DNA of 64,000 bases from Candidatus Fermentibacteraceae bacterium (GTDB lineage Bacteria > Fermentibacterota > Fermentibacteria > Fermentibacterales > JCC-6). Under the pieces are notes generated by a model. The model ran no database searches. It was not told where the DNA came from and saw only the letters and a list, made by a program, of their open reading frames with translations. The stretch covers positions 99,006-163,005 of the forward strand of contig JADGDO010000004.1 of assembly GCA_016744855.1 (NCBI GenBank), given 5' to 3'. Position 1 is the stretch's first letter; every line of letters starts with the position of its first letter. Below, in pieces: positions 993 through 23,401 of this stretch. Both the position numbers and the translations under genes were made by a program.

Positions 993-3362
993 CTAGTTCA
1001 GGATTGATTTATGCAGAGGGATGTCGTTGAAAAATGATCGTTTGTAGTCTTCTGACTGAATCTTTGCAGCAGCGTTTGTAAGCTCATCTTTTGCTGCTTT
1101 TTTCCACTGACTTGCTTTCTCCCGGTAAATCAAGCTCTTTCCAGACGAGATCGAAGGCTTTGCTGAGATAGCAGCATATGTCTCTGACCACTTCCAATAG
1201 ATTCCCGGCAGGTACCTCTCATTCTCGATTTGTGTGTTTTGTGCTTCTTCAAGGATTTTGGTAATCTCAAGCATTTCTGAACCACTTTGGGCCAGAGTTA
1301 GAGCAAGATCTGTTCTGATCTTAGCAAGAACTCTTGTCATATTAAACTTTTCACAAAGATCAAGAATAACTCTCAGATGGTTGATTGCTCCGGAATGGTC
1401 TCCTCTTTTTACGAGGATTTCGGAGAGGAACATTCGGTTCTCGACGATACCTTCTTTGTCATCAATTGCTATACTTGTTTCCAGAGATTTTCTTAGAATT
1501 CTCTCTGCTTCTTCTACCAACCCGGTTTCCAGCATCAGTATTGCATAATTTGTCTGGAGAAGTCCTTCCATATTTTTCGATCCGATTGTTCTTGCTAGAA
1601 GAAGCGCTTCTGTAAAATGATCTTGAGCTAAATCATGCACCCCAAGAGAGAGCATAGCACTCCCCATGTTGTTCAGCGCTCTGCATACCGAGCGTTTATC
1701 GCCAAGCTCCATTGATAACTGCAGGCTTTTCTTAGCAGTTTCATAGGCAAGCTCGATCTCACCCAGATCATTATGAATTATGCCTATGTTGGTCAGAATC
1801 ATTGCTTCACCTGTTTGATCCCTGATTATTTCTGCAATCTGAAGTGATCTGTTGAAGTATTCAAGTGCTTCCGCAGAATTGCCTGATCGCAGGTAGACCA
1901 ATCCAGTATTGCAGAGAGAGTGTGCCTGGCCAGTGAGGGATTCCAGTTCTTTTGACATACTGAGACTCTGTCTCAATTTTTCCAAAGCTTCGCTGAACAA
2001 AGAGCGGTCGCAGTCTAGAAGAGCCATATTGTTAAGAAGAATGCATTTATCTCTTCTCATGTGGTTTTCTTCGGCCAGGCACATTGCCTTTTCATAGGCT
2101 TTATGAGCCATATCCGGGTTTCCCTGCATCCAAAGTGATATTCCGATAGATTGAAGAATGTTCAAGAGCCCGTTATGGTTATCAGTTCGAATCGCAATCT
2201 CTTCTGCCTCGTGCAACATTTCCAAGTCAGTTGAGTAGTCACCAGAGTTTCTGTATGTTTCTCCCAGAATTACCCGCGCAGGTATCATATCCGGCTCCTT
2301 GTCAATAACACTTCGGAGAAGTTTTCTGGTTTTCTCAACATCATCAGGGTTTGTACGTTTCTTCCACAGGTGCTTGGCTCTCAGGTATTTCTCGTATACC
2401 GAAACAGAATCCACTTCAACTTCAGTTACCCCAGGATACTCTTCCGGATTTTTACCAAGAGCCTTAAGGATACTGTCGGCAAGCTTTCCTTTTATCGCCG
2501 GTAGATCATCAATTTTTTCTACCCAAGTGTCTTTCCAGATAATCTTATCAGACTCTATCTCTTTCAGCGTCAGAGAAAGATTTATACTTGATCCATCTCT
2601 GGCAATAGTACCCTTTGCCATTGCTTTAGATCCGAATCTTGCAGCAACACCCTTTTCACTTTCTCCGCTTTTCATCGCCTTCAGAAGAGAAGTGAGAGGA
2701 ACAACCGATACAGAGTCCGCTTTACCGAGGTCGGTCAATAAATCAGCATAGATTCCATACGCATAGAATTCATCCTCCTCAGCACCCTCGTTGATAAACG
2801 GAAAAACAGACAGTACCACCTGACCGCCCCTGTATGCAGGAACTGGTTCTTTGTTCTCCCCGCAAGAGGGTCTGCTCGGACCAATACAGTGAATCTGAAG
2901 GAGTCGTCCCAGACCTTTTAATCTGGTCAAACCAAGATTAACTGTCTCAGGTTTCTCCCCTTCTGCAAAGAGAGAAAGAGCTTCTCTGCTAATCAGGATT
3001 CCTCCAGCAGGGGCTTTTTGCTCGAGTCGGGCAGCGACATTTACGGTATCACCGAATACATCATTACCTTCGAATAGAACACTCCCCGAATGAATTCCAA
3101 TACGTACTCTGAAACTCTCGGCTATAAGTAATTCCTGTATTTTCAGTGCAGTAGCAACAGCTGTTGGAGAAGAAGCAAAAACGCTGAGAGTTCCGTCTCC
3201 CATTTCCTTAACCAAGCTTCCCCCGGATGCTCTGACCAGTTGGCGAACAATTTTCATTTTGCAGGAGTGAATTCTCATGGCTTCACGTTCAGACTGCTCC
3301 ATTATTGATGTAAACCCGACTACATCAGTGAACATGATCGTTGCCTGTCGCCTGATTGGCAA
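993..3362 (-). CDS. Class III adenylate/guanylate cyclase with C-terminal TPR repeats
   Basis: N-terminal cyclase homology domain: FTDVVGFT (metal-binding Asp), MGDGTL, and RIGIHSGSV...FGDTVNVAARLE; the C-terminal ~450 aa are helical TPR-like repeats. Confidence 0.8.
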   Translation of the reverse strand: MPIRRQATIMFTDVVGFTSIMEQSEREAMRIHSCKMKIVRQLVRASGGSLVKEMGDGTLSVFASSPTAVATALKIQELLIAESFRVRIGIHSGSVLFEGNDVFGDTVNVAARLEQKAPAGGILISREALSLFAEGEKPETVNLGLTRLKGLGRLLQIHCIGPSRPSCGENKEPVPAYRGGQVVLSVFPFINEGAEEDEFYAYGIYADLLTDLGKADSVSVVPLTSLLKAMKSGESEKGVAARFGSKAMAKGTIARDGSSINLSLTLKEIESDKIIWKDTWVEKIDDLPAIKGKLADSILKALGKNPEEYPGVTEVEVDSVSVYEKYLRAKHLWKKRTNPDDVEKTRKLLRSVIDKEPDMIPARVILGETYRNSGDYSTDLEMLHEAEEIAIRTDNHNGLLNILQSIGISLWMQGNPDMAHKAYEKAMCLAEENHMRRDKCILLNNMALLDCDRSLFSEALEKLRQSLSMSKELESLTGQAHSLCNTGLVYLRSGNSAEALEYFNRSLQIAEIIRDQTGEAMILTNIGIIHNDLGEIELAYETAKKSLQLSMELGDKRSVCRALNNMGSAMLSLGVHDLAQDHFTEALLLARTIGSKNMEGLLQTNYAILMLETGLVEEAERILRKSLETSIAIDDKEGIVENRMFLSEILVKRGDHSGAINHLRVILDLCEKFNMTRVLAKIRTDLALTLAQSGSEMLEITKILEEAQNTQIENERYLPGIYWKWSETYAAISAKPSISSGKSLIYREKASQWKKAAKDELTNAAAKIQSEDYKRSFFNDIPLHKSILN

Positions 3363-11726: not shown

Positions 11727-13499
11727 ATGACTGAAAGAGAACTGGTTGATCTTTACATAAAGTTTTTTGAAGGCAAGGGTCACAAAAGAATTCCGGGGGC
11801 ATCGATAATCCCCGAGAACGATTCAACTATCCTCTTTACGCCTGCTGGTATGCAGCCTCTGGTTCCATACCTTCTGGGAGAGAAGCATCCTCAGGGGAAA
11901 AGGTTGGTTGACGTTCAGAAGTGTATTAGAACCGGTGATATCGAAGAGGTGGGAGACGCAACACACCTCACTTTTTTCAGAATGCTGGGAAACTGGTCTC
12001 TGGGTGGTTATTTCAAAAAAGAAGCTATTCAGTGGAGCTGGGAATTCCTGACTGGTGAAGAATGGCTGGGTTTCGACCCCGAAAGAATAAGTGTAACAGT
12101 TTTTGCAGGTGAAGGAGACATCCCTCCTGACAGAGAAGCAGAAGCTTTCTGGCTCGAAGCAGGTGTTCCTCCTGAGAGAATATACAGTCTGGGGATGAAG
12201 GACAACTGGTGGGGACCAACTGGTGCTACTGGCCCCTGTGGGCCTGATACCGAAATGTTCTTCGATACCGGGGCCGAGCCCTGCGGTGAGAATTGTATAC
12301 CTGGTTGTTCATGCGGTAAATACTTCGAGGTGTGGAACGATGTTTTCATGGAATACAGGAAAACTGAAGCAGCTTCTTTCGAACCCCTCTCTCAGAAAAA
12401 TGTTGATACTGGAATGGGTGTTGAGCGCACAGTAGCAATGCTGGGTGGTCACAAGACAGTATACGAAATCGGTGTTCTGAAACCCCTTATTGCAAGGATA
12501 AGAGAGCTTACTGCTTCTTCCGATCCGGGTCGATCTGAAAAAGTCTTAGCAGATCATATCAGAAGCGCAACGCATATTCTCGGTGATGACTTGGGTGTTG
12601 TACCATCCAATGTTGATCAGGGTTATGTACTCAGAAGGCTTATCCGACTTGCTATTCGACATGGAATGAAGCTAGAAATTCAAGATGGATTCCTCACTGA
12701 TCTTGCTTCCATAGTTATAGAAATAGAGGGTGAAGATTACCCTGAACTGAAGAGAAACAGCTCCACTATTATTGATGAACTTGAGAGAGAAGAAAAACTT
12801 TTCGGTGAAACTCTTGTTGCAGGCATGAAGCAGTTCAACAAGATGCTTCCTAATCTTCTGAAGAACCCTCAAAAAATCATAGCTGGCAGGCTTGCCTTTA
12901 AGTTGTATGATACCTACGGTTTCCCGGTTGAACTTACTGCAGACCTTGCAGTTGAACATGGATTGACCGTGGACATGGACGGATACAACAAGGCTTTCGA
13001 CAAACATCGCCAGCTTTCCAAGCAGGGTGCGGACAAGAAATTCAAGGGTGGCCTCGCGGATAACAGTGAGATGGTAACTAAACTTCATACCGCTACGCAT
13101 CTGCTCCACGCTGCCTTGCGGAAAGTTCTTGGGGAAACTGTACAGCAGAAGGGTAGTAATATCACTGCTGAAAGACTGAGATTCGACTTTCTCTTTGCTG
13201 AAAAAATGACTCAGGAACAGAAAGACGAAGTTGAAGCTCTTGTGAATAGCGCAATCAACGATAAAATTGCAGTGGAAATGAAGGAAATGTCTCCGGATGA
13301 GGCAGAGAAGCTAGGGGCTTTAGGGTTCTTTAAAGATAAGTATGGTGATGTTGTAAAGGTTTACAGTATAGGAGAATACTCAACTGAAATATGTGGTGGA
13401 CCTCATGTTGGAAACACCTCTGAGCTCGTCAGATTCAAGCTCGTCTCCGAGAAAAGCTCGTCCCGTGGTGTAAGAAGGATCAAGGCGGTAGTTGAATGA
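11727..13499 (+). CDS. alaS: Alanine--tRNA ligase, short form lacking the C-terminal C-Ala domain
   Basis: FTPAGMQP, RTGDIEEVG and FFRMLGNWS catalytic-core motifs; editing-domain HTATHLLHAAL and CGGPHV motifs; 590 aa. Confidence 0.85.
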   Translation: MTERELVDLYIKFFEGKGHKRIPGASIIPENDSTILFTPAGMQPLVPYLLGEKHPQGKRLVDVQKCIRTGDIEEVGDATHLTFFRMLGNWSLGGYFKKEAIQWSWEFLTGEEWLGFDPERISVTVFAGEGDIPPDREAEAFWLEAGVPPERIYSLGMKDNWWGPTGATGPCGPDTEMFFDTGAEPCGENCIPGCSCGKYFEVWNDVFMEYRKTEAASFEPLSQKNVDTGMGVERTVAMLGGHKTVYEIGVLKPLIARIRELTASSDPGRSEKVLADHIRSATHILGDDLGVVPSNVDQGYVLRRLIRLAIRHGMKLEIQDGFLTDLASIVIEIEGEDYPELKRNSSTIIDELEREEKLFGETLVAGMKQFNKMLPNLLKNPQKIIAGRLAFKLYDTYGFPVELTADLAVEHGLTVDMDGYNKAFDKHRQLSKQGADKKFKGGLADNSEMVTKLHTATHLLHAALRKVLGETVQQKGSNITAERLRFDFLFAEKMTQEQKDEVEALVNSAINDKIAVEMKEMSPDEAEKLGALGFFKDKYGDVVKVYSIGEYSTEICGGPHVGNTSELVRFKLVSEKSSSRGVRRIKAVVE

Positions 13500-14386
13500 T
13501 TTTTTCACTGATTGCTCTTCTTGCAACAGCAAACTTCAGCGGTACTTGGGAAACCACTTACGGAGATATGGTTCTCGAACAGAATGGCACTTCAGTTACC
13601 GGCTGGTACAGCTATGGAACCATGTCCACAATCGAGGGAACTGTTACCCAAGGTGGAAAAATGATGTTCACCTATGACGAAGGAACAGCTGCCGGAAGAG
13701 GATGGTTTGTTCTCTCTGAAAACGGTACATCCTTTTCAGGAGAATGGAGAGCAGAAGGGGCGCAGGGTTGGAGTGACTGGGAAGGCCACCGGGCAGACGG
13801 TGAACCATCTACCTGGGTTTTAATTCTTGAAGCAGAGTGGCAGGAGTCAATGCGCGAGAATGAGTATTCCTTCGGTGAAATGCTTGATGCCTGGCTTGGC
13901 AGACTTGAGGGCATTGAGATTAGACATCGTTTCATTCACGATCTCGATGATGTTCGGAATTTCTGTGCAGAAGCCGCGGTGCTCTCCGGTGATGTCTACC
14001 TGATTTTTGCCTCTCATGGAACAACTGCCGGTATTGCACTAAACTCTGGAACAGTATCAGCACGGGACCTTGCAGAAGCTCTGTTACCAATGACAAATCT
14101 TCAGCTGGTTCATTTCAGCTGCTGTGAGATTATGGCAGGAGGTACTGATGAGGCTATTATTAACTCTAGATCAAACTGGCATGACGACTTCGCAGTATCC
14201 GGTTACACTACCTCCGTGGACTGGGGTGGCAGTGCCATTATAGAATTTTACTATCTCAATCAGATACTGGAGAATGGACTTACTCCTGTAGAAGCGGCAC
14301 GGGCCCTCGAGAGTGATATCGGATTTTCCGGTGCATCATCAACACCCTGGATGGATGGTGCGGGTTTCGAGATTCAAACACCCTGA
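13496..14386 (+). CDS. Secreted clan CD (gingipain/caspase-like) cysteine peptidase-like protein
   Basis: N-terminal hydrophobic signal-like segment, then a beta-rich region, then a His in IFASHGTTAG and a Cys in VHFSCCEIMAGG, resembling the C25/C14 His-Cys dyad; ATGA overlap with the alaS stop. Confidence 0.4.
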   Translation: MIFSLIALLATANFSGTWETTYGDMVLEQNGTSVTGWYSYGTMSTIEGTVTQGGKMMFTYDEGTAAGRGWFVLSENGTSFSGEWRAEGAQGWSDWEGHRADGEPSTWVLILEAEWQESMRENEYSFGEMLDAWLGRLEGIEIRHRFIHDLDDVRNFCAEAAVLSGDVYLIFASHGTTAGIALNSGTVSARDLAEALLPMTNLQLVHFSCCEIMAGGTDEAIINSRSNWHDDFAVSGYTTSVDWGGSAIIEFYYLNQILENGLTPVEAARALESDIGFSGASSTPWMDGAGFEIQTP

Positions 14387-14399
14387 GAATCATATAGAA

Positions 14400-15440
14400 A
14401 TGAGGAACATGGATTTACTGAAGAGATTGTGTGAGGTCGACGGCATATCCGGTAGGGAAGATGCTGTTGTCAAGCTTCTGGAAGAGGAACTCAAAGATAG
14501 TGCTGACGAAATCTGGACAGATGCCATTAAGAACATAACTGCAGTTAAGTATGGAACTGAAGGTGAGGACAGGCTTCGAGTAATGCTCGCTGGGCATATT
14601 GATGAGATCGGTTTTCTGATTTACAACATAGACAAGAATGGTTTTGCATCAATAGTTCCGGTAGGCGGTTGGAGTGCATCATCTATTTTCGGCCACACCG
14701 TTAAGGTTCACACCCGAAAAGGTGAGTTGCTTACAGGTGTTGTCTGTGCTCCTCCTGCACTCACTCCTGAAGCCGCTGGGAAAGCTATCAAGCTAGACTC
14801 TCTCTACATTGATTTCGGTATGACCGGCGACGATGTAACAGAAAAAGTTTCCCGCGGAGACTGGGTCTCCATGGATACGAAATTCACAGAGATGGGTGAT
14901 TGTTTTGTGGCAAAGGCTTTTGATGACAGAGTCGGAGCCTACATAATTGCAGAAGCTTTTAAGAAGTACAGCAATCCTGCAATTGATGTTTACTGTGTAG
15001 GCACATCTCAGGAAGAGGTAGGTCTTAGAGGATCTACAGTAGCCGCTCAGACAATAATGCCCGATATCGGAATTGCAGCAGACATCACTGGAGCAGGAGA
15101 TACACCTGGTTTCCCTGCAGCAAAGAAAATCTGCGATTTGGGAAAAGGTGTTGCTATCAAGCAGCAGGATGCCAGCGTTATCTGTTCACCTTCCCTCGTT
15201 AATTTCATCCGTGACATTGCAGAGGAAAAGGAAATTGATCATCAGATGGAGATACTTGTAAGGGGTGGTACAGATACCAGCTCGATGCAGAAATTTGGCG
15301 GTAATACTCACGCCACCTGCCTCTCGATTCCCACTAGAAATGGACACAGCCCCGTCGCCATCATACATAGGCATGATGTTGAGACAGCAGTTGAACTTCT
15401 TGTGGAATTCCTGAACAAGGCTCATCTTTTTAAGGGCTAA
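14400..15440 (+). CDS. M42 family aminopeptidase (FrvX / glutamyl aminopeptidase-like)
   Basis: DGISGREDAV...MLAGHIDEIGF...VGTSQEEVGLRG motifs typical of the M42 family. Confidence 0.75.
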   Translation: MRNMDLLKRLCEVDGISGREDAVVKLLEEELKDSADEIWTDAIKNITAVKYGTEGEDRLRVMLAGHIDEIGFLIYNIDKNGFASIVPVGGWSASSIFGHTVKVHTRKGELLTGVVCAPPALTPEAAGKAIKLDSLYIDFGMTGDDVTEKVSRGDWVSMDTKFTEMGDCFVAKAFDDRVGAYIIAEAFKKYSNPAIDVYCVGTSQEEVGLRGSTVAAQTIMPDIGIAADITGAGDTPGFPAAKKICDLGKGVAIKQQDASVICSPSLVNFIRDIAEEKEIDHQMEILVRGGTDTSSMQKFGGNTHATCLSIPTRNGHSPVAIIHRHDVETAVELLVEFLNKAHLFKG

Positions 15441-15464
15441 GGCCAGTTTTTGCGAATCTTAATA

Positions 15465-15502
15465 GAAGAAGAAGGGGCTGCACAAGCAGCCCCTTCTTCT
15501 CT
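15465..15502 (+). terminator. Intrinsic-terminator-like hairpin downstream of the M42 peptidase gene
   Basis: Perfect 14-bp stem GAAGAAGGGGCTGC / GCAGCCCCTTCTTC with loop ACAA; the U-tract is weak (TCTCTAATAT). Confidence 0.5.
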
Positions 15503-15634
15503 AATATGACTAAAAAAGGATATAAAAGTAACAATGCAAGACTATTCTGTATTAAACACAAAACAGACTATAAAAAGGTCATTGTTATTTGTTCCTTAAC
15601 TATACAGATTCTTAAATCATATTAAGGAGATGTA

Positions 15635-17413
15635 ATGATTAAAAATGACAGGCTAATCACAGAACTGAATGAGAGTATTAAACGCGGTAATTATCTTCAA
15701 GCTATAGATTCTGCTAAACGAAATCTTGTTCAAACAGGTGATCCTCTACTAAGAAAACCTCTGGCCCTGGCGTTATCCAGGATGGGTCATGCAGAGGAGG
15801 CTCTAAGAGTTCTCAAGCCCCTTTTTCGCAAAGGTGCAGATCCGGAAACAAACGGACTCATGGGGGGAATCTTGAAACGAAACTGGCTCTCTTCCGGAAA
15901 CAGTAAGTATCTTGAAGATTCCTACAAATACTACCTTAAGGCATTTAAAGAGGGTGGTGGTTACTGGACCGGAATTAATGCAGCAACCCTCGCCTGCATC
16001 ATGAATAAAGATATTTCTCTAGTTCTGGCCGAAGAGGTATTGGATATTTGCTGGGAAGAGTACGGAAGGATGGGAACCAGAAGCTGCTTCTGGTTGCTGG
16101 TTTCAATAGCGGAAGCCCATCTTGTCAAGCGCGATATATCCACTGCAATTAAATGGTATAAGCTTGTAACACCAATGGCTTTCAAATCTGTAGGGCAGAT
16201 GAAAACGGTCAGACGGAATGCTAGAATTTTGGGTGAGAAACTCGGTACAGAGTCACTTGAACTGCTTATGAATACTATTACAGCACCTAGAGTTGCTTTC
16301 TTTGCAGGTCACAAGATTGATAGAGAAGGGATGCCTCCTAGATTCCCTCAGAAGGAAACTGAGGTTGTTAAGAATAAACTGAGAGCTACCCTTGGTAAAT
16401 TAAAAATCAGTGTCGGAGTTGCATCACTTGATGACGGCTCAGATATTCTCTTTCATGAGTGTTTGATTGAAGCTGGAAGGCAATGCAGAGTTATTCTTCC
16501 ATCACCAATTGCTGATTTCAGGAAAAAACTCGCGTCTGATGATCCAGGCGGGTGGGTTGAGAGGTTTGATAAAGTTTTGGCTGCCGCATCTTGTGTCGAA
16601 ATTGTTTCTAATTCAGTTTTTACAAAAGACTGGGGTATTGTCTACGAGTTGGCTACAGAGTACATGATCGGTTATGCCATGAGTCTTGCAGAAGAGTTCG
16701 ATGGAGAGATTGTTCCTCTAGTTGTCTGGGATAATAAGACGCAGGATAAGCGCGGGGGAACTTATTCAGCTGTAAAGATGCTTCGTTCTCTCGGGCATGA
16801 ACCGGTAGTAGTAACGGTTTTTCCAAAATCATCGCTGCAGGACTTCAACGGGTCCAAAACTAAAACATCGTTGTTGGAAACCAAAGGATATGTGCCTTTG
16901 AAGAATACATTTGTTGTTGTTGGTGTTGCTAAGGATATACGAAATGATGATGAAATAGCTGATGTGTTATCAAAGTACATTAAAACGGTTTCTGATATTA
17001 CTTCAACGGGCAGTCTTTCCAGTGTCGTTGCTAAAAGAAGCTTAAGCGGCAAGGAGATTTGTCTTACTTTCTCAACCATTGAATCTGCTGAAGAATTTAT
17101 TCGTTCTTTCAGGAAGAAACATTCGAAGAGCACAATATTCGCACATGTGGGTCTCAGTGTCCGGTTTGACGTTTCACTTTCCAGAGCAGGAGACTTTTTC
17201 AGCCCCGCTCTAATCGAGGCAGTCAAACTAGTCAGAGAGCTTTCTGCAGGTCAAACTTTCAGCACTGGTACATTCAGATCACTCGCATATCTTGAGAAGA
17301 GAAACCAGTACCGATACACGTATCGTGGTCAATTCAGTATTGATGAACGCAATGTTAAAATCTTCGAGATGAATTGTAGAAGTAGAACCGGCTCCAGACT
17401 GACAGAATTCTGA
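15635..17413 (+). CDS. Multidomain protein of unknown function: N-terminal TPR-like helical domain, central Rossmann-like (SLOG/LOG-like) domain, C-terminal degenerate nucleotide-cyclase-like region
   Basis: AAGGAG RBS before ATG 15635; central VGVASLDDGSDILFHECLIEAGRQCRVILPS...DDPGGWVERF resembles LOG/DprA-type Rossmann motifs; C-terminal IFAHVGLSV...AGDFFSPALIEAVKL faintly resembles cyclase beta-strands but lacks metal-binding Asp residues. Confidence 0.5.
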   Translation: MIKNDRLITELNESIKRGNYLQAIDSAKRNLVQTGDPLLRKPLALALSRMGHAEEALRVLKPLFRKGADPETNGLMGGILKRNWLSSGNSKYLEDSYKYYLKAFKEGGGYWTGINAATLACIMNKDISLVLAEEVLDICWEEYGRMGTRSCFWLLVSIAEAHLVKRDISTAIKWYKLVTPMAFKSVGQMKTVRRNARILGEKLGTESLELLMNTITAPRVAFFAGHKIDREGMPPRFPQKETEVVKNKLRATLGKLKISVGVASLDDGSDILFHECLIEAGRQCRVILPSPIADFRKKLASDDPGGWVERFDKVLAAASCVEIVSNSVFTKDWGIVYELATEYMIGYAMSLAEEFDGEIVPLVVWDNKTQDKRGGTYSAVKMLRSLGHEPVVVTVFPKSSLQDFNGSKTKTSLLETKGYVPLKNTFVVVGVAKDIRNDDEIADVLSKYIKTVSDITSTGSLSSVVAKRSLSGKEICLTFSTIESAEEFIRSFRKKHSKSTIFAHVGLSVRFDVSLSRAGDFFSPALIEAVKLVRELSAGQTFSTGTFRSLAYLEKRNQYRYTYRGQFSIDERNVKIFEMNCRSRTGSRLTEF

Positions 17414-21199: not shown

Positions 21200-23401
21200 T
21201 TACCAGTCCCGTCGATAAACCCTGATATTGTCCACCAGATGTTGCATAGATGTCGAGTTGCCGTTGATGAAGAGTCTCAGAGAATCCGGAGCACTCAGCG
21301 AAGCTAGTGTTGCTATCAGACTGTCATTGATCAGGAAAAATACCGAATCATCATGGTTTTCAATGATGAAAAGGTGAGGCATGTTTGAAGCAAGTTGAAC
21401 TGGTACATCGAGTACATTGCGCGGAGAAACTCTTGAAGAAGAGATTGTCAGTTCCTGTTCAGCCCCATAATTCCACCTTAACTCACAGTCTGCAGTTTCC
21501 TGATTTGTTGCATAGAGGTAGCTTTCAGCAGTTCCAATCGATACCCAGTTGCTGTTAGAATCCAAGGTGACATCTGAAACGGTTATCTCTGCGGAGAAGC
21601 ACAATCCTGAAGTGAGTTTAAGAGGCTGCCTCTGCAGAACTGGAGAGTTGCTGACAGTCAGTGCAAGATCTTCGCCTGAACCATTGGAAATCACTTCAGG
21701 AGGAGTGCTGCCAGCTGAGCCGAGCATCCAGAATTCCTGCGTGATAAAGCCAGTATCCCAGTTCTCTGAAAAAATCGGGACACCTTGTATGCAGGAGCTA
21801 TTGCACTCCCCGTCCGTGTTCATTTCCACCAACCATGCATCTCTGTCGCCAAATCTGGTAGTAGAGCCTGAAAGAAGGAGAATCCCATCTTCTCTTTGGT
21901 TTACAGAGATGATGTGATCATCTTCTCCAGTATCAATAATTGATTTCCATTGTAGTTTTCCAGACTTATCTATACAGACAACCAATCCATCAGATTGTCC
22001 ATTTTCAGCAGGAATTGTTGACCCTGCAAGAATGATGGAACCGTCGGGTAGAATGTAGAGATCAGCAGGTATTCCCGAGATAACTTCTTCTGGGGTACAT
22101 TCCCACTCAATCTCGAAACTGCTGGTTAGCTTTGTTATCGATATTTCTTCCTCTCGGCTCATGTCTACAGCTACGGTTACTACCGAACCATCAGTACAAA
22201 ACCTGGCACAGTGTATTATCGATCTCTGATCACTCAGGATGGTTTGATCTTGTATACCATGTTGATTTAGTACTTTGAAGGTACTTAAGCCAGTTCCGTA
22301 GGCTCCGTTGAATAAGAGGATCTGCCCATTGTCTGAGACTGCAGTGCACTGATTCTCAAAGTTCCCCGGAACTTCAAATGTTTCTCCTGTACCTGTTGAA
22401 GCATCCAGTTCTGCAAAATAGACAGTTTCTCCACTTTCTGATCCGGTTTTCTTTATGAATCCGGCAATCGCTCTGTTCTCATCAAGCCAGTCCAGGGAGG
22501 TGATTACAGGAAACCCGTCACCACTGTAATCAATCCTCGGCTTAATTTCCCAGAGTATACTTCCCCCTGGGCTCAGTCTTACAGCTCTATATACGAAGCT
22601 GGAGTCATCAGAATCGGATGAATTTGTGTAAACACACATACAACCACCATCTGGCATGGAAAGTAAGAGGGGGATACTTTCTCCAGTAACTGAGTCAGAC
22701 CAGCTGTTGACAAAACTACCAGAATTATCAAAATAGGCAACCCATATTTCACTCCACAGGCCCGTGTCCCAGGCTCCTGAAAGTATCGTTCCACCGTTTA
22801 TGCCGGAAACAACATCAGAAGCATAATCCCAGGAATCTCTTCCACCCAATGCGATGTTTCCTAAGTTACTTAGGCTTGGGGCCGCTGTACCGGATGCTAG
22901 AAAAACCTTTGATAGCAATGCAATGAAAATGATTGCTGGTATTGCTATCCATTTGAGTTTTCCGCCTCTTCCTGACTTCAGTTCTGTATCTGTCTTCTGC
23001 GGTTTTTGTTTTACGAGAGTTAGAAGAGCTTCTGATATCCCGGGAGTATTCACTTGGCCAGTTATACAATCTATCCAGGGTACTGCATTTGTGTAATAGA
23101 GGATGCTCTTAGAAGCTTCGGCTTCCCGGAATTTAAGGGTTACTATTGGAATTCTCATATTTGCAGCAATTTCCAGTTCACCTCTTATATGATGTGAATC
23201 TGTTGCATTTTCCGAGAATACCAGCAGAACTGCTGCTGATTCAAGGATTGCGCTATAGACAGATTTCTCCCTGTCGGATCCAGACTGTGCATCCCTCGAA
23301 GATACCCAGCACTTGTATCCCAGAGCCTCAAGCTCTTCCAGAAGTGCTTTCGCAAGGTTAGCATCCTTGCTCGAGTGACAGATGAAAAACTGTTTATCCA
23401 A
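21200..23401 (-). CDS. Single-pass membrane protein with N-terminal cytoplasmic TIR domain and a large extracytoplasmic beta-propeller-like plus LamG-like region
   Basis: N-terminus FICHSSKDANLAKALLEELEALGYKCWVSSRD...LLVFSENATDSHHIRGELEIAANMRIPIVTL is a bacterial TIR (TIR_2-like) domain; a TM helix WIAIPAIIFIALLSKVFLA follows; repeats of the DGSIILAGST...DAWLV type suggest a propeller; TTG start overlaps the upstream stop by 8 nt. Confidence 0.65.
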   Translation of the reverse strand: MDKQFFICHSSKDANLAKALLEELEALGYKCWVSSRDAQSGSDREKSVYSAILESAAVLLVFSENATDSHHIRGELEIAANMRIPIVTLKFREAEASKSILYYTNAVPWIDCITGQVNTPGISEALLTLVKQKPQKTDTELKSGRGGKLKWIAIPAIIFIALLSKVFLASGTAAPSLSNLGNIALGGRDSWDYASDVVSGINGGTILSGAWDTGLWSEIWVAYFDNSGSFVNSWSDSVTGESIPLLLSMPDGGCMCVYTNSSDSDDSSFVYRAVRLSPGGSILWEIKPRIDYSGDGFPVITSLDWLDENRAIAGFIKKTGSESGETVYFAELDASTGTGETFEVPGNFENQCTAVSDNGQILLFNGAYGTGLSTFKVLNQHGIQDQTILSDQRSIIHCARFCTDGSVVTVAVDMSREEEISITKLTSSFEIEWECTPEEVISGIPADLYILPDGSIILAGSTIPAENGQSDGLVVCIDKSGKLQWKSIIDTGEDDHIISVNQREDGILLLSGSTTRFGDRDAWLVEMNTDGECNSSCIQGVPIFSENWDTGFITQEFWMLGSAGSTPPEVISNGSGEDLALTVSNSPVLQRQPLKLTSGLCFSAEITVSDVTLDSNSNWVSIGTAESYLYATNQETADCELRWNYGAEQELTISSSRVSPRNVLDVPVQLASNMPHLFIIENHDDSVFFLINDSLIATLASLSAPDSLRLFINGNSTSMQHLVDNIRVYRRDW

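Follow-up and report, generated by a model that had tools for sequence, protein, structure and literature searches.

A TPR-S–SLOG protein with a catalytically dead cyclase domain in Candidatus Fermentibacterota belongs to a family coupled to TIR-domain genes

We analyzed a gene for a 592-aa protein in a stretch of 64,000 nt of contig JADGDO010000004.1 from a Candidatus Fermentibacteraceae bacterium. This whole stretch is referred to below as the window, and all coordinates are positions in it unless a locus number is given; the features are collected in Table 1. The protein consists of a TPR-S module, a SLOG domain similar in structure to YpsA, and a class III cyclase-homology domain that has lost its catalytic residues. 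The family of TPR-S–SLOG–cyclase proteins to which it belongs shows strong genomic coupling to TIR-domain genes. We read the 592-aa protein as a cytosolic non-catalytic sensor or adaptor for a NAD-derived messenger made by a TIR protein, with a Thoeris-like origin and a lost cyclase output, and we give this inferred role about an even chance of being right.

The first-pass annotation, made from the letters of this DNA, had proposed a three-part protein. Independent tests confirmed each of the three parts, as a TPR-S module, a SLOG fold and a cyclase fold. The N-terminal module is a clear member of the TPR-S/ASK (MAP3K5) signalosome TPR scaffold group (PF20308, PF13281). The Pfam model TPR-S (PF20308) matches residues 21-120 over profile positions 3-102 of 102 with E=5e-21 and 75.6 bits, which is above the cutoff of 27.6. 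MAP3K_TRAF_bd/DUF4071 (PF13281), the family that had been named for this all-helical, TPR-like region, matches residues 38-127 with E=1e-5. TPR-S is also present in all homologues of the protein.

The middle region has no family match in Pfam (even at E<=10), NCBIfam, PADLOC or PDB sequences. An AlphaFold model, obtained with an alignment of 28 sequences as input (pLDDT 89, pTM 0.87), predicts a Rossmannoid SLOG fold at residues ~218-395, and the structural neighbors of the model are SLOG proteins. With its glycine-rich loop and GGT motif the region thus proved to be the SLOG-like Rossmann domain that had been suspected. The glycine motifs G261...G268-S-D270 (the loop after strand 2) and G374-G375-T376 (before the last helix) are invariant or nearly so among 45 sequences. 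Residues H226, D229, R236, G268-x-D270, E275, W307, R310 and G374-G-T are invariant family-wide, and this ligand-site signature is the same in the clades with active and with dead cyclases.

The closest structural relative of the domain is YpsA of B. subtilis (PDB 2nx2, SLOG superfamily, DUF1273), at 14% identity. The signature GxD/E of the YpsA clade is present as G268-x-D270; this motif is functionally required in YpsA (PMC6459960). Since there is no PF06908/DUF1273 match and the likeness consists of structure and the GxD/E motif only, we do not class the domain as a member of the YpsA family. A profile of the domain likewise found no match among PDB sequences, 2nx2 included. In Firmicutes YpsA stands alone as a protein and has a link to GpsB and cell division, whereas the domain studied here has TPR-S on one side and the cyclase fold on the other and is TIR-linked.

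The last ~165 residues are collinear with PF00211-positive cyclase domains of distant relatives, while the region of the window protein itself has no direct match to PF00211 or to PDB sequences. Residues ~425-585 have a class III cyclase fold, and the fold matches include soluble guanylyl cyclase (sGC) alpha/beta and adenylyl cyclase (AC) C1/C2. V429 (with G430 adjacent) stands in place of the first metal-binding Asp and K473 in place of the second, and the transition-state Arg has become K531. In an alignment of 45 relatives (A1) the Asp/Asp/Arg triad is kept in 24-25 sequences and is missing in 21 of the 21 members of the dead-cyclase clade; it is also missing in all 17 Fermentibacterota genes examined. 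With none of these three catalytic residues retained, the domain is not classed as an active cyclase. The degenerate cyclase-like C-terminus described in the first-pass annotation therefore stands, now with a class III fold, homology to the active domains of relatives and the changes D to V/G, D to K and R to K. The systems used for comparison were class III cyclases and their inactive relatives: Rv1264, Rv1900c, sGC alpha/beta, AC C1/C2 and the AC-like ATP-binding protein of P. aeruginosa (6yii).

The gene had been called an orphan, which it is not. A database search returned 48 homologues, and a scan of genomes, one per species, found 372 related genome stretches. An exhaustive search with the SLOG-domain profile returned 5,650 clusters at 50% identity, 1,067 of them with E<=1e-30; the best matches are mostly proteins of 600-800 aa with the domain at an equivalent position. 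Two types can be distinguished. The active type has the architecture [RyR]–TPR-S–SLOG–cyclase with the triad intact and is found in Acidobacteriota, Verrucomicrobiota, Deltaproteobacteria, Cyanobacteria and other phyla. The dead-cyclase type was seen only in Candidatus Fermentibacterota (Sabulitectum, Fermentibacteraceae, Aegiribacteria) and in a few unclassified metagenome-assembled genomes. At least one Fermentibacteraceae genome (L058) carries an active-type paralogue. The invariant core of the family consists of its receiver part, and cyclase catalysis is dispensable in one clade.

Active cyclase domains (e.g. P0025, P0036 and P0037 in alignment A4) have Asn at the position of Lys in adenylyl and Glu in guanylyl cyclases; their motif k-N-T-W-G-D corresponds to V-E-T-I-G-D of sGC beta. 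The nucleotide product of the active relatives may therefore be non-canonical. At one locus (L099, 5625-7528) a relative is spread over three consecutive open reading frames (ORFs) for TPR-S (130 aa), SLOG (313 aa) and cyclase (171 aa) and adjoins SIR2_2-TIR_2 and nSTAND1 genes; this is either a frameshifted copy or a natural split. Stand-alone SLOG relatives were considered as a guide to function and proved uninformative: one had a housekeeping context, and one was a fragmented copy linked to TIR and nSTAND1.

The coupling to TIR genes was measured on active-type clusters, counted as independent at <=70% identity. A TIR ORF lies within 300 bp of the family gene in 24 of the 43 clusters. Of the 46 TIR ORFs in active-type loci, 42 are found no further than 2 kb from the family gene, against an expected 24% (p about 1e-21). 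Among the neighbors of the family, TIR genes dominate. The partners are varied and include TIR-DUF4062, TIR-TPR, TIR with unknown extensions and WD40-containing forms; next to TIR they have TPR, DUF4062, WD40 or unknown regions and no cyclic mononucleotide (cNMP)-binding domain.

A cassette of four genes was observed at L005 (10071-15655), L006 (10359-15868) and 16 more loci, in Acidobacteriota and others. It encodes the TPR-S–SLOG–cyclase protein, a TIR_2+DUF4062 protein (~490 aa), an nSTAND1-TPR NTPase (~930 aa) and a ~380-aa protein with no confident Pfam match. The nSTAND1 cassette was rejected as a universal partner: it accounts for only 18 of the ~67 active loci and for no Fermentibacterota locus, and so is not a defining component.

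Both receiver modules have precedents in work on TIR signaling. In Thoeris, ThsB-TIR makes 3' cyclic ADP-ribose (3'cADPR), which the SLOG domain of ThsA senses (bioRxiv 10.64898/2025.12.03.692087). The cADPR-responsive effector ThsI of type VIII Thoeris has a TPR for which Aravind and colleagues predicted a sensor function; this TPR is presumed to perceive cADPR (same source). Variants of cADPR interact with YpsA-like SLOG domains (PMC9503650). TPR-S was predicted to recognize NAD+-derived signals and to have TIR and YpsA genes as neighbors (bioRxiv 10.1101/2023.05.26.542521). TPR-S and SLOG are thus established or predicted receivers of TIR-made messengers, and this leads to the sensor reading. 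The first-pass annotation had suggested a non-catalytic sensor or regulator of nucleotide signaling, and among its suggestions on function this one is best supported by the neighborhoods of the homologues.

In the proposed mechanism, the TIR protein would turn NAD+ into an ADP-ribose-derived messenger. In Fermentibacterota this protein would be membrane-anchored, with the TIR domain in the cytoplasm and a large extracytoplasmic sensor region. The messenger would be bound by the TPR-S module, the YpsA-like SLOG module, or both. In the active relatives binding would switch on the C-terminal cyclase to produce a cNMP, which makes up a two-step messenger relay. In the Fermentibacterota clade the cyclase domain would now have a structural role, probably as a dimerizing module, and the 592-aa protein would have no enzymatic role but serve as an adaptor, scaffold or buffer under ligand control.

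LOG-type SLOG enzymes cleave the N-glycosidic bond in a nucleotide. Accordingly, one may suppose that the SLOG domain of the 592-aa protein is itself a working enzyme of this kind, which degrades or processes the TIR messenger or makes a signal of its own, and that TPR-S and the dead cyclase regulate it or provide a scaffold. Such degradation or processing of the messenger would then serve as an off-switch or set a threshold. We consider this unlikely. YpsA, the closest structural relative, and the SLOG domain of ThsA are ligand binders with no demonstrated catalysis, and the LOG motif PGGxGTxxE is mirrored only in part, since GGT is present and the Glu is missing.

The direction of signaling could also be the reverse. 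Pycsar pairs a PycC cyclase with a TIR or TM effector, and the active relatives likewise have a class III-type cyclase gene beside a TIR gene. Their matches to PycC are weak (E about 5e-3), and the 592-aa protein has no PycC match in a scan of defense models with PADLOC (2023). Under a Pycsar-like scheme, a cNMP from the cyclase would activate the TIR protein as effector, and the 592-aa protein would be a regulatory subunit that heterodimerizes with an active class III cyclase. The functional form of class III cyclases is a dimer, and heterodimers in which one half is dead are well known; the pseudo-symmetric dimers C1/C2 and sGC alpha/beta are among the fold matches. The partner could be an active paralogue, such as the one seen in L058, or the 789-aa protein encoded elsewhere in the window, which has a weak PycC match too.

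Several observations make this scheme very unlikely in our view. The adjacent TIR proteins have no detected cNMP-binding domain, in contrast to what Pycsar would require. The cyclase protein carries the sensor modules for a TIR signal, so the direction of signaling appears to be opposite to that of Pycsar; the reverse scheme leaves TPR-S and SLOG, the known or predicted receivers of TIR products, unexplained. The 592-aa protein differs from half-sites of the C1/C2 type in that each half of its active site has lost residues (both Asp and the Arg), so that classical complementation of an active partner by the dead domain would not be possible. Nor is linkage with any active cyclase gene conserved.

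The 789-aa protein had been noted in the first-pass annotation as a cyclase-TPR protein that might share a pathway with the 592-aa protein. The gene is there, and its cyclase is apparently catalytically intact with a modest PADLOC match to PycC (9e-9). The supposed link did not hold: we rejected paralogy and linkage of the two proteins as they have no BLAST similarity, different architectures and no conserved co-location.

A candidate TIR partner is encoded in the window. The 733-aa protein has a predicted receptor-like topology, with a TM helix at ~152-170 and an extracytoplasmic region of ~560 aa. Its candidate catalytic Glu (E75) is conserved, and the TM helix is common to the orthologues. 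The gene is a full-length orthologue, at 28-32% identity over residues 1-733 and E about 1e-115, of the first gene of a tight operon that occurs in a sister branch of the dead-cyclase clade, the Aegiribacteria type. In this operon the gene for TIR, TM and the ~560-aa extracytoplasmic region is followed by one or two genes for secreted ~230-aa proteins, and the family member comes last. Starting from the family member, we found the operon in six loci (L015, L018-L021, L023); starting from the TIR gene, in all five informative loci (L089-L092, L095), with overlapping stop and start codons.

Some further features of these loci were recorded. Orthologues of the 733-aa protein occur across Fermentibacterota, those of Sabulitectum-type genomes at 42-54% identity, and its extracytoplasmic region has a weak match to the DUF5122 beta-propeller. 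The secreted ~230-aa proteins (L015 4110-4799; L016 598-2014; L019 7009-8378; L089 4935-6304; and others) have a signal peptide, no Pfam match and a conserved C-terminal ...HDN[LV]V[VL]YRP; in the operon they always stand between the TIR-TM gene and the family gene, singly or as two tandem copies. No homologue of them was detected in the window. Homology of the ~230-aa proteins to the C-terminus of the TIR protein is not claimed (BLAST E about 0.75-1).

Several facts weigh against the sensor reading. We inferred that SLOG and TPR-S bind a ligand, that the TIR partner is an NADase and which way the signal runs, and the invariant polar residues of the SLOG domain (H, D, R, E, R) would be compatible with an enzyme too. 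The window has its TIR gene 3.8 kb downstream on the opposite strand, with two unrelated genes between. In Sabulitectum-type genomes the pair is only loosely linked; on one contig the two genes are ~30 kb apart, a separation due to large insertions. S. silens (L003) has an orthologue of the 592-aa gene and no TIR gene within 10 kb. Another Sabulitectum genome (L102 13596-16977, and also L103) has the genes for TIR-TM, FabF, the type IX secretion system (T9SS)-sorted protein and M42 peptidase in order without an orthologue of the 592-aa gene; in L102 the T9SS gene and the M42 gene are only 167 bp apart. Strict co-inheritance of the two genes in Sabulitectum-type genomes is thus contradicted by S. 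silens and L102. For about 40% of the active relatives, no TIR gene lies nearer than 10 kb. Finally, PADLOC recognized neither the 592-aa protein nor the four-gene TIR/nSTAND1 cassettes.

The gene had been described as transcriptionally isolated behind a terminator and an AT-rich leader, and our data agree. The upstream gene for an M42 peptidase ends with its stop codon at 15440. The hairpin that follows has a folding energy of -33.9 kcal/mol (z = -6.0), and none of 200 shuffled sequences was as stable. A scan with a consensus terminator model made no call on it because the tail has no clean T-run. A strong hairpin of differing sequence occupies the equivalent position in seven of the seven orthologous loci compared; conservation of the position without the sequence is as expected of a functional terminator. 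Judging from the sequence, the hairpin appears to end the transcript of the M42 peptidase gene and to insulate the 592-aa gene.

The leader (about 136 nt) has 26% GC, and the gene itself 43%. Its alignment with the other upstream regions revealed two conserved blocks, TTGTTATTTG at 15582-15591 and ACAGATTCTTAAAT at 15604-15617, ahead of a Shine-Dalgarno sequence AAGGAG at 15624-15629. The blocks are near-invariant although the orthologous proteins share only 53-84% identity. They are candidate promoter or operator elements. A riboswitch or other known leader RNA was rejected: no Rfam family reached the gathering score in the leader region, and the sub-threshold matches were driven by the hairpin. 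The hairpin and the conserved AT-rich leader indicate that the gene appears to have a promoter and leader of its own, insulated from upstream transcription.

Table 1. Features of the window discussed in the text
Feature	Position	Strand	Basis or remark
TPR-S–SLOG–dead-cyclase gene, 592 aa	15635..17413	+	ATG start; stop codon included
TPR-S module, all-helical, residues 1-211	15635..16267	+	PF20308, PF13281
YpsA-like SLOG domain, residues 212-402	16268..16840	+	fold and invariant signature residues
Linker, poorly conserved, residues 403-424	16841..16906	+	low identity, variable length in A1
Catalytically dead class III cyclase-homology domain, residues 425-592	16907..17413	+	alignment, fold
Intrinsic-terminator-like hairpin	15468..15499	+	perfect G+C-rich 14-bp stem, 4-nt loop
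AT-rich leader/promoter region	15500..15634	+	composition; alignment of 7 orthologous upstream regions
Candidate partner, 733 aa, N-terminal TIR–single transmembrane (TM) helix–extracytoplasmic region	21200..23401	-	TIR_2 E=1e-16, TM prediction
789-aa protein, N-terminal class III cyclase and many TPR_12 repeats	993..3362	-	PF00211 E=1e-14

The loss of the catalytic residues raises the question whether an ancestral TPR-S–SLOG–cyclase gene is decaying here and the 592-aa gene is a relic that no longer has a function. The cyclase-like domain does evolve fastest, with 32% identity to the S. silens orthologue compared with 62-64% for the other two domains. Ratios of nonsynonymous to synonymous polymorphism (pN/pS), computed against orthologues of 70-72% identity and rough because synonymous divergence is saturated, are 0.13-0.19 for SLOG and TPR-S (about 0.14 and 0.18), 0.24-0.35 for the dead cyclase and 0.6-0.9 for the linker, whose identity among close orthologues is 23-32%. 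Being well below 1 in each domain, they indicate purifying selection on all three domains, and they largely refute the idea of a relic. Moreover, the ORF is intact and full-length in all gene-carrying Fermentibacterota genomes examined, the predicted folds are confident and intact, and the leader and the Shine-Dalgarno sequence are conserved. We therefore find a functionless gene hardly credible.

Gene order speaks on whether the protein serves in defense. The window has genes for alanyl-tRNA synthetase (AlaRS), an unknown protein, M42 peptidase, the 592-aa protein, a T9SS-sorted protein, FabF and, on the opposite strand, the TIR protein. The order from AlaRS to the 592-aa gene is kept as far as the S. 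silens orthologue of 53% identity. The flanking genes in conserved synteny are housekeeping genes, and the gene is not located in a defense island.

Two side observations concern this locus. The slot between the 592-aa gene and the T9SS gene varies among close genomes (L100 9827-15195; L104 12127-21773; L010 5500-9114; L012 8970-11702) in the manner of an insertion hotspot; one genome has genes there for a T9SS protein of 3,649 aa, an AAA_16-TPR protein (1,050 aa) and a TIR_2-AAA_16 STAND protein (739 aa). The unknown ORF (13496..14386, plus strand, 296 aa) has no Pfam family and is syntenic between AlaRS and M42 in Sabulitectum-type genomes. Its His/Cys pattern 'ASHG ... HFSCCE' is reminiscent of caspase/CHAT-type proteases.

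A bona fide anti-phage system, that is, a Thoeris-like variant rather than a domesticated pathway, would account for the TIR, nSTAND1 and SIR2-TIR genes, typical of conflict systems, that are found beside active relatives. It would also fit the patchy presence of the 592-aa gene and the TIR gene among close genomes, and the STAND/TIR insertions that the adjacent slot has taken up in one of them. Yet the gene stays at the same locus, from AlaRS to the T9SS gene, across genera, with no mobile-element or other defense genes flanking it in the window. It has a conserved leader of its own, its effector-type output, the cyclase, is dead, and PADLOC has no model that matches it. A present role in defense thus seems quite unlikely to us. 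The more specific suggestion of a stand-alone defense sensor, made in the first-pass annotation, found no support: the gene lies in a housekeeping block of conserved synteny that is inherited vertically, and its relatives occur in pairs with TIR genes, not alone.

The fixed locus, vertical inheritance and the own conserved leader behind a terminator suggest domesticated physiological signaling rather than a mobile defense gene. The receptor-like topology of the TIR protein and the secreted accessory proteins also point to a domesticated physiological pathway. The sensor reading can be extended to a pathway in the style of Toll-like receptors, from a transmembrane sensor-TIR through a messenger to the 592-aa adaptor, with the active relatives forming an undescribed Thoeris-like class of TIR-to-cNMP relays. 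The ~560-aa domain would sense an outside stimulus, helped by one or two secreted ~230-aa proteins; the cytoplasmic TIR domain would then fire, and the NAD-derived messenger would be read by the TPR-S/SLOG pseudo-cyclase adaptor. We put this extension forward tentatively, as a possibility well short of an even chance.

All three domains have known superfamilies, and the pairing of TIR with SLOG/TPR follows the logic of Thoeris, which combines ThsB TIR with ThsA SIR2-SLOG in type I and with ThsI CMP-hydrolase-TPR in type VIII. The family differs from Thoeris in several respects. Its output is a class III cyclase (dead here) and not SIR2, SLATT, Macro or a hydrolase. TPR-S and SLOG are combined in a single protein, with SLOG of the YpsA kind. 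The TIR partner in Fermentibacterota crosses the membrane once and has a large domain outside, and the 592-aa gene is in a housekeeping synteny block. The parts of the text and supplements of the 2025 Thoeris survey available to us mention no cyclase effector. The accessible literature, which does not include the paper introducing TPR-S, contains no fusion of TPR-S, YpsA-like SLOG and class III cyclase, and no systematic TIR pairing, dead-cyclase lineage or transmembrane TIR partner of such a fusion.

So far, TIR-to-SLOG/TPR signaling is known from the Thoeris systems of anti-phage defense, in which the output leads to death or arrest of the cell. The family described here would add a widespread un-annotated architecture, based on a SLOG subfamily without a Pfam model, that joins the receiver and a class III cyclase in one protein. 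Such a fusion implies a relay from a NAD-derived messenger to a cyclic mononucleotide. The dead cyclase and the transmembrane-receptor topology of the TIR protein in Fermentibacterota suggest that an immune-type module was turned to ordinary transmembrane signaling. Both ideas bear on the diversification of TIR signaling before eukaryotic immunity.

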